Shown here: positions 355 to 42,488 of the stretch, one piece after another
Layout of the letters: each line of letters starts with the position of its first letter
Position numbering within the stretch: the stretch's first letter is position 1
NCBI RefSeq assembly: GCF_988242995.1
Contig: NZ_OZ547043.1
DNA length: 64,000 bases
Strand: one strand, 5' to 3'
Notes under the pieces: model-generated
The model's input: the letters and a program-made list of their open reading frames with translations, nothing else
What the model was told of the DNA's origin: nothing
Databases searched by the model: none
Position numbers and translations under genes: made by a program

Positions 355-1707
355 ATGTTGAAATCCCCCCTGTTCTGGAAAATGACCACCCTGTTTGGTG
401 CCGTATTGCTGTTGTTGATTCCGATAATGCTGATTCGGCAGGTGATTGTCGAACGTGCCGATTACCGTAGCGATGTGGAAGATGCGATTCGCCAAAGTAC
501 CAGCGGGCCGCAAAAACTCGTTGGGCCGCTTATCGCTATTCCTGTGACCGAGCTTTATACGGTACAGGAAGAGGATAAAACCGTGGAGCGGAAACGAAGT
601 TTTATCCATTTTTGGTTACCTGAGTCATTGATGGTTGATGGCAATCAGAACGTGGAAGAACGCAAGATAGGGATTTATACCGGTCAGGTCTGGCACAGTG
701 ATTTAACGCTAAAAGCCGATTTCGATGTTTCGCGTCTTAGCGAACTCGACGCGCCAAATATCACCTTTGGCAAGCCATTTATTGTGATTAGCGTCGGGGA
801 TGCGCGTGGTATTGGTGTGGTGAAAGCGCCTGAAGTTAACGGAACGGCGCTGACCATTGAACCCGGCACCGGGTTAGAGCAAGGCGGGCAGGGCGTGCAT
901 ATCCCTTTACCCGAAGGGGACTGGCGGAAGCAGAACCTGAAGCTGAATATGGCACTGAATTTAAGCGGTACCGGCGATCTTTCTGTGGTGCCTGCGGGGC
1001 GTAATAGCGAAATGACCTTAACCAGCAACTGGCCGCATCCCAGTTTTTTAGGTGATTTTCTACCAGCCAAACGGGAAGTTAGTGAGTCAGGTTTTCAGGC
1101 GCAATGGCAAAGCAGCTGGTTTGCTAATAATCTCGGTGAGCGTTTTGCTTCAGGCAATGATACCGGCTGGGAAAACTTCCCCGCGTTTAGCGTTGCAGTG
1201 ACGACGCCAGCCGATCAATACCAATTAACTGACCGGGCGACTAAGTATGCCATTCTGCTGATTGCGCTGACTTTTATGGCGTTCTTTGTTTTTGAAACGC
1301 TCACCGCGCAACGCTTACACCCAATGCAATATTTGCTGGTGGGGCTTTCATTAGTGATGTTTTATTTGCTCTTGCTGGCGCTTTCTGAACATACCGGTTT
1401 TACCGTGGCATGGATAATCGCCAGTCTGATTGGGGCGTTAATGAACGGTATTTATTTGCAGGCGGTATTGAAAGGTTGGCGCAACAGCATGTTGTTTACC
1501 CTCGCGCTGTTGCTGCTGGATGGTGTGATGTGGGGACTGCTCAACTCTGCCGATAGCGCGCTGTTGTTGGGAACCAGTGTGCTGGTGGTGGCGCTGGCCG
1601 GCATGATGTTTGTGACCCGTAATATCGACTGGTATGCGTTTTCACTGCCGAAAATGAAAGCCAGTAAAGAAGTTACAACGGACGATGAATTACGTATCTG
1701 GAAATAA
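355..1707 (+). CDS. creD: Inner membrane protein CreD
   Basis: 450-aa ORF with multiple hydrophobic segments; position between creC and arcA matches the E. coli cre operon. Confidence 0.9.
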   Translation: MLKSPLFWKMTTLFGAVLLLLIPIMLIRQVIVERADYRSDVEDAIRQSTSGPQKLVGPLIAIPVTELYTVQEEDKTVERKRSFIHFWLPESLMVDGNQNVEERKIGIYTGQVWHSDLTLKADFDVSRLSELDAPNITFGKPFIVISVGDARGIGVVKAPEVNGTALTIEPGTGLEQGGQGVHIPLPEGDWRKQNLKLNMALNLSGTGDLSVVPAGRNSEMTLTSNWPHPSFLGDFLPAKREVSESGFQAQWQSSWFANNLGERFASGNDTGWENFPAFSVAVTTPADQYQLTDRATKYAILLIALTFMAFFVFETLTAQRLHPMQYLLVGLSLVMFYLLLLALSEHTGFTVAWIIASLIGALMNGIYLQAVLKGWRNSMLFTLALLLLDGVMWGLLNSADSALLLGTSVLVVALAGMMFVTRNIDWYAFSLPKMKASKEVTTDDELRIWK

Positions 1708-36551: not shown

Positions 36552-37388
<837 letters not shown>

Positions 37389-37794
37389 CCACAAAATGTT
37401 TATGATGATGCAAAAATAACACATTTAATTTATTGATTATAAAGGGCTTTAATTTTTAGCCCTTTTATTTTTGGTATTATGTTTTTAAATTTTATGTAAG
37501 TGCTAAAAATTACACGTTTTGTCTTCTGTTTTTGTTGTTTTAATGTAAATTTTGACCATCTGGTCCACTTTTTTCTGCTCATTTTTATTTCATGCAATCT
37601 TCTTGCTGCGCAAGCGTTTTCCAGAACATGTTATATGATCTTTTTGTCGCTTAATGCCTGTAAAACATGCATGAGCCACAAAATAATATAAAAAATCCCG
37701 CCATTAAGTTGACTTTTAGCGCCCATATCTCCAGAATGCCGCCGTTTGCCAGAAATTCGTCGGTAAGCAGATTTGCATTGATTTACGTCATCAT

Positions 37795-37834
37795 TGTGAA
37801 TTAATATGCAAATAAAGTGAGTGAATATTCTCTG
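37795..37834 (+). promoter_or_regulatory. Tandem ARG boxes (ArgR operators) overlapping the carAB P2 promoter
   Basis: TGTGAATTAATATGCAAA and GTGAGTGAATATTCTCTG resemble the ARG-box consensus (TGAAT..ATTCA) just upstream of the carA start and its GGAGGG Shine-Dalgarno. Confidence 0.5.
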
Positions 37835-37843
37835 GAGGGTGTT

Positions 37844-38992
37844 TTGATTAAGTCAGCGCTATTGGTTCTGGAAGACGGAACCCAGTTTCACGGTCGGGCC
37901 ATAGGGGCAACAGGTTCGGCGGTTGGGGAAGTCGTTTTCAATACTTCAATGACCGGTTATCAAGAAATCCTCACTGATCCTTCCTATTCTCGTCAAATCG
38001 TTACTCTTACTTATCCCCATATTGGCAATGTCGGCACTAATGACGCCGATGAAGAATCTTCTCAGGTACATGCACAAGGTCTGGTGATTCGCGACCTGCC
38101 GCTGATTGCCAGCAACTTCCGTAATACCGAAGACCTCTCTTCTTATCTGAAGCGCCATAACATCGTGGCGATTGCCGATATCGATACCCGTAAGCTGACG
38201 CGTTTACTGCGCGAGAAAGGCGCACAGAATGGCTGCATTATCGCAGGCGATAACCCGGATGCGGCGCTGGCATTAGAAAAAGCCCGCGCGTTCCCAGGTC
38301 TGAACGGCATGGATCTGGCAAAAGAAGTGACCACCGCAGAAGCCTATAGCTGGACACAAGGGAGCTGGACGTTGACCGGCGGCCTGCCAGAAGCGAAAAA
38401 AGAAGACGAGCAGCCGTTCCACGTCGTGGCTTATGATTTTGGTGCCAAGCGCAACATCCTGCGGATGCTGGTGGATAGAGGCTGTCGCCTGACCATCGTT
38501 CCGGCGCAAACTTCTGCGGAAGACGTGCTGAAAATGAATCCAGACGGCATCTTCCTCTCCAACGGTCCTGGCGACCCGGCCCCATGCGATTACGCCATTA
38601 CCGCCATCCAGAAATTCCTCGAAACCGATATTCCGGTATTCGGCATCTGCCTCGGTCATCAGCTGCTGGCGCTGGCGAGCGGTGCGAAGACTGTCAAAAT
38701 GAAATTTGGTCACCACGGCGGCAACCATCCGGTTAAAGATGTTGAGAAAAACGTGGTGATGATCACCGCCCAGAACCACGGTTTTGCGGTGGATGAAGCA
38801 ACATTACCTGCAAACCTGCGTGTCACGCATAAATCCCTGTTCGACGGTACGTTACAGGGCATTCATCGCACCGATAAACCGGCGTTCAGCTTCCAGGGGC
38901 ACCCTGAAGCCAGCCCTGGTCCACACGACGCCGCGCCGTTGTTCGACCACTTTATCGAGTTAATTGAGCAGTACCGTAAAACCGCTAAGTAA
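37844..38992 (+). CDS. carA: Carbamoyl-phosphate synthase small (glutamine amidotransferase) subunit
   Basis: ORF-track ORF 37817..38992; TTG start at 37844 preceded by GGAGGG gives the canonical 382-aa CarA ([24 protein letters not shown]...). Confidence 0.9.
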
Positions 38993-39009: not shown

Positions 39010-42228
<3,219 letters not shown>

Positions 42229-42280
42229 TAGCGTGTCATGGCGGATATTTTTCATCCGCTAATTTGATCGAATAACTAAT

Positions 42281-42309
42281 ACGGTTCTCTGATGAGGACC
42301 GTTTTTTTT
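42281..42309 (+). terminator. Probable rho-independent terminator after carB
   Basis: ACGGTTCTCTGATGAGGACCGT imperfect hairpin followed by TTTTTTTTG. Confidence 0.55.
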
Positions 42310-42488
42310 GCCCATTAAGTAAATCTTTTGGGGAATCGATATTTTTGATGACATAAGCAGGATTTAGCTCACACTTATCGACGGTGAAGTTGCATACTAT
42401 CGATATATCCACAATTTTAATATGGCCTTGTTTAATTGCTTCAAAACGAGTCATAGCCAGACTTTTAATTTGTGAAACTGGAGTTCGT

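Follow-up and report, generated by a model that had tools for sequence, protein, structure and literature searches.

The carAB control region in a 64-kb stretch of Escherichia coli DNA: tandem promoters, a phased pair of ARG boxes and a TTG start codon for carA

The interval between dapB and carA in the 64,000-nucleotide stretch of DNA analyzed here (the window) is almost certainly the textbook carAB control region of Escherichia coli, with a promoter P1 under pyrimidine and purine control, a promoter P2 controlled by ArgR, and a TTG start codon for carA served by the sequence GGAGGG (Table 1). In this work we determined the sequence identity with strain K-12, where each site lies, how the ARG boxes compare with chance and across species, and how widely the start codon is kept; protein binding, promoter activity, and ribosome initiation come from published studies of the same sequence in K-12. 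The region is a long-studied case, and our results add nothing to what has been known about it from 1984 onward (reviewed in PMC6245113). It makes a good positive control: an operator and a non-ATG start were recognized from the raw sequence, and public data agree.

The order rihC-dapB-carA-carB is that of the E. coli chromosome, according to the RefSeq annotation of a strain that is 100% identical over a 651-bp query, and K-12 MG1655 is annotated with the same arrangement. This query identified the dapB/carA interval in 5425 of 5426 complete E. coli genomes; identity was 100% in at least 15 strains and 95–99% in most other E. coli genomes. Only 123 of the 5425 genomes were at least 99% identical to the allele of the window over the 651 bp. 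K-12 coordinates are window positions minus 8193. In MG1655, the dapB-carA spacer lies at 29196..29650 and carA (b0032) starts at 29651, so that the spacer measures 455 bp in both strains. Alignment with the K-12 carAB promoter, which the sequence-only reading had suggested as a check, showed that 37636..37870 is base-identical; this segment comprises the GATC site, P1, the leader, P2, both ARG boxes, the Shine-Dalgarno sequence (SD), and TTG. All of the 15 substitutions in the spacer fall within its distal 247 bp, one of them in the stem of the dapB terminator and one at the non-consensus center of the RUT box. Given these distal differences, the quantitative regulation of P1 could differ from that of K-12 in this allele. 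The encoded CarA has a single substitution relative to K-12 CarA (L190Q), and carB starts with ATG, 17 nt past the carA stop.

Table 1. Features of the carAB control region and neighboring genes, in window coordinates
Feature	Position	Strand	Basis
dapB coding sequence, upstream neighbor	36567..37388	+	ORF list, RefSeq and K-12 annotation
IHF binding region, -324 to -287 of P1 +1	37420..37457		published footprint distances (PMC6245113)
dapB intrinsic terminator, in dapB 3' UTR	37441..37475	+	fold, Rfam DapZ partial alignment
PepA-wrapped DNA (predicted), ~230 bp round one hexamer, -280 to -60	37464..37684		published distances (PMC6245113)
RUT box, RutR site TTGACCATCTGGTCCA, -192 to -177	37552..37567	+	consensus and published position (PMC6245113)
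PUR box, PurR site GCGCAAGCGTTTTCCA, center -128.5	37608..37623	+	published position (PMC6245113)
GATC Dam site, ~106 bp 5' of P1 +1	37637..37640		sequence, published distance (PMC6245113)
P1, pyrimidine-controlled promoter	37709..37744	+	promoter scan, review, ES003 5' end
P1 leader, first 53 nt = Rfam RF02750 ES003 'sRNA' (K-12 29551..29603)	37744..37796	+	covariance model
P2, arginine-controlled promoter	37778..37811	+	67-nt start distance (review), hexamers inferred
ARG box 1 TGTGAATTAATATGCAAA	37795..37812		consensus match, conservation
ARG box 2 AGTGAGTGAATATTCTCT	37816..37833		consensus match, conservation
Shine-Dalgarno GGAGGG	37834..37839	+	sequence; conserved in carA loci
carA, 382 aa, TTG start 37844..37846	37844..38992	+	annotation, structures, family model, profiling, comparison
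carB, large subunit, second operon gene	39010..42228	+	ORF list, annotation

The sequence-only reading had placed the carA start at the TTG preceded by GGAGGG, and this was borne out by the sequence, in which GGAGGG is followed by four nucleotides (TGTT) and TTG, and by six lines of evidence. Both RefSeq/PGAP and the K-12 record begin carA at TTG. The expectation that an automated caller would choose an upstream in-frame GTG was thus mistaken, and the gene calls of Enterobacter, Klebsiella, and Salmonella (NCBI and Logan assemblies) also give 382 aa. The PDB chains of E. coli carbamoyl-phosphate synthetase start with MIKSALL, whose first residue is number 10 of the GTG ORF, and the chains of 1cs0 and 1kee differ from the window CarA at one residue (L190Q). 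The family model of the glutamine-hydrolyzing small subunit (TIGR01368) scored 510 bits against a cut-off of 307. Its position 1 falls on residue 14 of the GTG ORF, or residue 5 when counted from TTG, which leaves the nine extra residues outside the family. The PDB N-termini and the coverage of TIGR01368 argue against the GTG extension, in agreement with the earlier statement that only translation from TTG matches canonical CarA. The exact 382-aa CarA was found on 93 contigs of a collection of 15 billion proteins. A carA entry was not found in the TRAINSPOTTER N-terminomics supplements.

Ribosome profiling had been named as the observation that could overturn the TTG assignment in favor of GTG, and published K-12 data place initiation at 29651, the TTG. 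This start was detected in five of five in vitro INRI-seq replicates (Hor et al., 2022; PMC9825163, Tables S2/S3) and in the in vivo retapamulin data of Meydan et al., as tabulated in the same paper (Ribo-RET 421.9). No initiation site is given there at the GTG, and the sole additional site is a CTG 12 nt upstream of TTG. The review by Charlier et al. also states a TTG initiation codon for carA (PMC6245113).

A census of start codons was done with one genome per species and a protein pattern that began at codon 3 (K-x-A-x-L-V-L-E-D-G-T), which left the start codon unconstrained; the pattern missed Pseudomonadales, Xanthomonadales, Legionellales, and Betaproteobacteria. We kept 101 loci whose N-terminus was at least 60% identical to that of E. 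coli CarA. They represented 61 genus-level lineages (32 Enterobacterales, 8 Alteromonadales, 7 Vibrionales, 7 Methylococcales, and 7 other Gammaproteobacteria). TTG occupied the homologous position in 99 of the 101 loci, with GGAGG five bases upstream, and GGAGG kept this spacing in nearly all of the approximately 100 gammaproteobacterial carA loci. Codon 2 was variable across lineages (ATT, ACT, AGT, AAT, GGT, or GCT).

Two other ways of starting carA were weighed. Initiation at another near-cognate codon, either ATT (37847) or CTG (37832), the latter giving a minor extended isoform, is very unlikely. Piette et al. are reported to have left open in 1984 whether UUG or AUU is the carA initiator, an ambiguity that would speak for ATT. 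The census argues against it, since a codon 2 that varies while TTG is fixed in 99 of 101 loci excludes ATT as a conserved initiator. The in-frame CTG was detected in all five in vitro INRI-seq replicates; however, its signal in vivo was 0 (PMC9825163), and it overlaps the SD and lacks an SD of its own.

Translation from the GTG at 37817..37819 has even less to recommend it, and we consider it highly improbable. The reading frame is open from this codon, which would add MSEYSLEGV to the N-terminus and yield a protein of 391 aa, and GTG is kept in many Enterobacteriaceae. However, it has no upstream SD, and the P2 mRNA begins only about 6 nt before it. GTG was lost in Kluyvera, Mangrovibacter, Photorhabdus, Xenorhabdus, and RIT691, and a stop separates its position from TTG in Yersinia aldovae, Vibrio, Budvicia, and Pseudoalteromonas; in many species the frame is closed by a stop 4–9 codons upstream of TTG and offers no alternative start. 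Neither the PDB chains nor the family models include the extension, the Ribo-RET peak coincides with TTG (PMC9825163), and the 391-aa form was absent from the 15-billion-protein collection. At nine codons upstream of TTG, GTG is confined to a part of the Enterobacterales, where it coincides with the TGAGT half-site of ARG box 2; the other lineages have CTG, GCG, or ATG at this position. GTG is conserved because it belongs to this half-site. The in-frame GTG is a part of ARG box 2 and no start codon, and carA starts at TTG.

The operator of P2 consists of the two ARG boxes. Two palindromes had been reported from the sequence alone. Box 1 was confirmed, with one mismatch to the consensus WNTGAATWWWWATTCANW and the best match within the 64 kb. 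The string given for box 2, GTGAGTGAATATTCTCTG, is present (37817..37834) but stands one nucleotide out of register: 3 mismatches were counted in the canonical register against 11 in the earlier one. The corrected register restores the canonical 3-bp spacer (TAA) between the boxes; box 2 contains the in-frame GTG. A tandem pair with 21 bp from center to center, which puts both boxes on one helical face, was seen once in the window and neither in 200 Markov-1 sequences of 64 kb nor in 2 Mb of random DNA matching the AT-rich composition of the spacer.

Of the 32 Enterobacterales lineages, 31 had the tandem boxes at positions -49..-11 relative to the carA start codon, the exception being a symbiont with a reduced genome. 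Their total mismatches ranged from 3 to 6, against a mean of about 12.7 for shuffled sequences. Box 1 (-49 from the start codon) was almost invariant, box 2 was more variable, and the flanking bases varied. Several Vibrionales had weaker matches in the same place, and ARG boxes were not found at carA in Alteromonadales or Methylococcales. In K-12, where the operator sequence is identical, the review describes two 18-bp boxes, 3 bp apart and bound by one ArgR hexamer, and reports ArgR footprinting, operator-constitutive mutants, and arginine-dependent repression (PMC6245113). That the palindromes arose by chance in AT-rich DNA and form no ArgR operator has a negligible probability, the lowest of the alternatives: the spacer is AT-rich, ARG boxes are AT-rich palindromes, and single boxes with three mismatches number 21 in the window, but the phased pair is unique there and missing from the composition-matched random sequence, it keeps its position across Enterobacterales while the flanks vary, and it is the same as the footprinted and mutationally defined K-12 operator (PMC6245113).

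P2 was not called by a simple promoter scan. Its likely hexamers, as judged from the sequence, are TTGATT (-35, 37778..37783) and TAATAT (-10, 37802..37807), with 18 bp between them. The review puts the P1 and P2 start points 67 nt apart (PMC6245113), which gives a P2 +1 at about 37811. The ARG boxes then span approximately -16 to +23 of P2 and overlap the core promoter; the same review places them over the P2 '-35' (PMC6245113), in contrast to the span obtained from the window coordinates.

P1, a sigma-70 promoter, was identified from the sequence and from the 5' end of ES003, which in K-12 is at 29551 and marks the P1 start at 37744. A -35 hexamer TTGACT (37709..37714) and a -10 hexamer CAGAAT (37732..37737) are separated by a 17-bp spacer, and the -10 is followed by GCCGCC and the +1 G of GTTTGCC. 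According to the review, P1 transcripts begin with G and three U, and this T run allows UTP-sensitive reiterative transcription (PMC6245113). The sites upstream of P1 are given there as distances from its start (Charlier et al., PMC6245113), and we placed them relative to +1 = 37744. All published sites fell on matching sequence at their published distances.

The individual motifs differ in how well they stand by themselves. The IHF core WATCAANNNNTTR is matched by AATCAATAAATTA on the minus strand (37426..37438), a match that alone is not above chance. The RUT box is the sole match to TTGACCANNTGGTCAA with two mismatches or fewer in the 64 kb, and it differs from the K-12 box TTGACCATTTGGTCCA at one central N position only. 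The PUR box, which is the same as in K-12, has three mismatches to the consensus and by itself is not above chance either. Wrapping of DNA around PepA would be expected here from the identity or near-identity of the segment with K-12. Binding of IHF and PepA shields the GATC site from methylation, as the review reports (PMC6245113).

The dapB-carA spacer (37389..37843) has a GC content of 0.323, compared with 0.504 for the whole window, which puts it within the lowest 2.2% of 455-bp windows in the 64 kb; its distal 247 bp have 27.5% GC. The AT-richness noted in the sequence-only reading is therefore real, although the length of about 430 bp given for the tract fell short of the 455 bp found. 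The spacer is a control region of carA overall, except for the first 85 nt or so, which are the 3' UTR and terminator of dapB. The terminator has an 8-bp stem (AAAGGGCU/AGCCCUUU) and a 9-nt loop, followed by UUUUAUUUUU; the hairpin occupies 37441..37465 and precedes the U tract, and its fold has -10.5 kcal/mol (z -1.77). This segment overlaps the IHF site. We also considered the dapB 3' UTR as a member of the DapZ family, the sRNA from the Salmonella dapB 3' UTR (Rfam RF02551), and rejected this, since its 26.3 bits fall short of the gathering score (56): the terminator part of the model aligned well and the 5' part that bears the seed did not.

The ES003 model (RF02750) matched the P1 leader over its full length (1–53) with 87.4 bits and E 7e-18, the gathering score being 37. 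ES003 is exactly +1 to +53 of the P1 transcript, and its 3' end lies at the 5' border of ARG box 1. It has been reported to decrease 133-fold in stationary phase (Rau et al., 2015; PMC4676190). No RNA stability beyond that of shuffled sequences was found for the P1 leader with early carA (z -1.47), for the P2 leader (z +0.66), or for ES003 alone (z -0.47).

The region would thus work as in the established model. P1, starting at the G of 37744, would sense pyrimidines and purines through an AT-rich upstream architecture of approximately 350 bp, its inputs being the bend made by IHF, wrapping by PepA, activation by RutR, and the PurR site; further inputs would be reiterative transcription on the GTTT start, which is UTP-sensitive, and ppGpp. 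P2 would start about 67 nt downstream of P1, and an arginine-loaded ArgR hexamer would occupy both phased ARG boxes, covering the -10 region and the start site of P2 and so turning it off. Both mRNAs would be translated from the strong SD GGAGGG and the TTG at 37844 into the 382-aa CarA.

The side observations on the conservation of TTG with GGAGG and on a constrained block at the beginning of carA are the only parts of this analysis that could open new work. TTG and GGAGG are kept at fixed spacing across several gammaproteobacterial orders, while the 5-nt spacer between them and codon 2 have diverged. The pairing spans at least Enterobacterales, Vibrionales, Alteromonadales, Methylococcales, and lineages of sulfur-oxidizing symbionts. 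A TTG start has also been reported for carA of A. baumannii, and only about 3% of E. coli genes use TTG as a start codon. In the literature searched, we did not find a description of a conserved TTG/UUG start of carA.

The second observation is that synonymous codon diversity across 19 Enterobacterales genera is about half of that expected in the first 60 or so carA codons, amounting to 0.50 bits where matched amino acids would lead one to expect 1.04 (p < 2e-4). In codons 2–13 it was 0.21 bits. The nucleotide identity of this block to E. coli is 95–99% in the closest genera, compared with 84–85% for the rest of carA. The constraint was absent in carA of Vibrionales, Alteromonadales, and Methylococcales.

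Three possible causes of the constraint were tried and rejected. RNA structure does not account for it, as the native -33..+210 segment was less stable than its synonymous-codon shuffles (z +1.75). RNAalifold paired the SD with +169..+175, with a clear compensatory change in one pair only, and the fold of the single sequence paired it with +124..+128. The accessibility of the SD was the same as in synonymous-codon shuffles. No overlapping ORF of at least 20 aa could be placed over codons 1–60, and a CarZ-like sRNA does not explain the constraint either. The last part of the constrained block is a C-rich, G-poor tract (+100..+180; 30% C, 9% G) that ranks within the top 0.44% of 80-nt windows. 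This tract resembles, speculatively, a Rho-loading site; our literature search turned up no specific report of Rho termination in E. coli carA.

Maintenance of TTG with GGAGG across the orders named above suggests that the pair is held by selection. Taken together, the conserved combination of a weak TTG and a strong GGAGG, the synonymous constraint over about 60 codons, and the Rho-like tract raise the possibility, on balance doubtful, that carA carries a conserved and undescribed layer of post-transcriptional control, for which the retention of TTG and GGAGG is one basis. If this were true, the initiation rate at TTG could be sensed and coupled to transcription or to the fate of the mRNA, as with CarZ in Vibrio. 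The deep conservation of TTG and GGAGG and the constraint specific to Enterobacterales also suggest that translation initiation of carA is under tighter selection than the transcription-centered literature implies.

The carAB operon of Vibrio cholerae is the same operon, and Vibrionales have the same initiation region of TTG and GGAGG. There, the initiation region of carA is a post-transcriptional target of CarZ, an sRNA from the 3' UTR of carAB (Hoyos et al., 2020; PMC7398697). V. cholerae has CarZ, whereas no convincing equivalent was found in the E. coli window. The candidate that we considered came from the carB 3' UTR (42229..42310), whose linker CUAAUUUGAUCGAAUAACUAAUACG pairs over TTG with -13.1 kcal/mol; it was rejected, being matched by 10.7% of shuffles and not conserved in Salmonella, Klebsiella, and Enterobacter. 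The Rfam search of this 3' UTR gave chance-level matches only.

In Salmonella, Klebsiella, and Enterobacter, the core of P1, the GTTTGCC start, both ARG boxes, the SD, and TTG are almost invariant, whereas the P1 leader has diverged from that of E. coli between +20 and +55. The spacer of Salmonella is about 1 kb long and has a call for a 98-aa ORF on the minus strand, in contrast to the 455 bp of E. coli. Tandem promoters and ArgR control are also reported for Salmonella carAB in the review (PMC6245113). The other ArgR operators of the arginine regulon likewise consist of paired 18-bp imperfect palindromes, spaced by 3 bp, which cover the promoter and bind one ArgR hexamer. Unlike them, the carAB operator governs only the downstream promoter of a tandem pair, and transcription from P1 reads through it, as the review describes (PMC6245113).

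A TTG start codon with GGAGG five bases upstream was present in 99 of the 101 gammaproteobacterial carA loci analyzed, which represent 61 genus-level lineages from at least four orders, and variation was found in the spacer and in codon 2. The exceptions were two MAGs, one of Methylococcaceae with GTG and one of Endozoicomonadaceae with ATG one codon upstream. An in-frame CTG located 12 nt upstream of the TTG has been detected by INRI-seq as an initiation site in vitro in five out of five replicates, and is absent in vivo (PMC9825163).

Positions of the features discussed (L numbers, carA loci from other genomes; L007, Salmonella)
Feature	Position in window	Other position	Loci or remark
GGAGG and TTG of carA	37834..37846		homologous place in L009-L128
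Upstream CTG	37832..37834	K-12 about 29638-29639	overlaps Shine-Dalgarno
ES003 match	37744..37796		
dapB 3' UTR and terminator	37392..37475		
carA codons 1-60	37844..38023		
C-rich, G-poor tract	37944..38023	carA +100..+180	
CarA residue 190	38411..38413		
carB 3' UTR	42229..42310		
Distal part compared with K-12	37389..37635		
Proximal part and carA start compared with K-12	37636..37870		
Terminator stem substitution	37458		
RUT box substitution	37560		
Salmonella dapB-carA spacer		463..1500	L007
CCCGTTTT(TT), Rheinheimera group		-25..-12 from TTG	L021, L029, L044, L080, L081
CCCGTTTT(TT), Pseudoalteromonas		-25..-12 from TTG	L009, L022, L049
CCCGTTTT(TT), Methylococcales		-25..-12 from TTG	L012, L056, L092

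Synonymous variation is suppressed in the first 60 codons of carA in Enterobacterales. Codon entropy was about half the expectation for identical amino acids. Nucleotide identity between E. coli and its closest genera was 95-99% in these codons versus 84-85% in the remaining gene. Vibrionales, Alteromonadales, and Methylococcales did not show this suppression. Neither RNA structure, nor overlapping ORFs, nor a carB 3'-UTR sRNA accounted for the constraint. The carB 3' UTR has an sRNA-like layout, with two hairpins and a U tail; possible pairing of its AU-rich linker across the carA TTG (-13.1 kcal/mol) was not significant against shuffled sequences, and this UTR lacks conservation across genera.

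The early coding region also contains a tract rich in C (30%) and poor in G (9%), which ranks in the top 0.44% of 80-nt windows on the same strand and resembles a Rho-loading site. A second tract of a similar kind lies near carA +700.

In the control region, the Rfam "sRNA" ES003 matched (87 bits) the first 53 nt of the transcript from P1, the pyrimidine-controlled promoter, and its 3' limit lies at the upstream boundary of ARG box 1. The level of ES003 is reportedly 133-fold lower in stationary phase (PMC4676190). ES003 may represent a piece of the P1 leader that is paused, roadblocked or processed. The dapB 3' UTR and terminator gave a sub-threshold match to the DapZ sRNA family of Salmonella (26 bits vs. 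56), in which the terminator part aligned and the model's 5' portion did not. The hairpin of this terminator overlaps the IHF site of carAB P1.

All 15 substitutions between this spacer and that of K-12 fall in the distal 247 bp, and the proximal 208 bp match K-12 throughout. One of the 15 lengthens the dapB terminator stem relative to K-12, and another places C for T at a non-consensus position in the centre of the RutR site (RUT box). Within a set of 5425 E. coli genomes, just 123 were at least 99% identical to this allele. CarA residue 190 is Q here and L in K-12 and PDB chains; the exact Q190 protein occurs on 93 contigs in public assemblies and is therefore a natural polymorphism.

The dapB-carA spacer of Salmonella is about 1 kb long, compared with 455 bp in E. 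coli, and includes a called minus-strand ORF of 98 aa without a Pfam match. Members of Alteromonadales and Methylococcales carry a CCCGTTTT(TT) motif immediately 5' of the Shine-Dalgarno sequence, and ARG boxes are absent from these loci. The motif resembles the GCCGTTTGCC at which E. coli P1 starts reiterative transcription, or the tail of a terminator.
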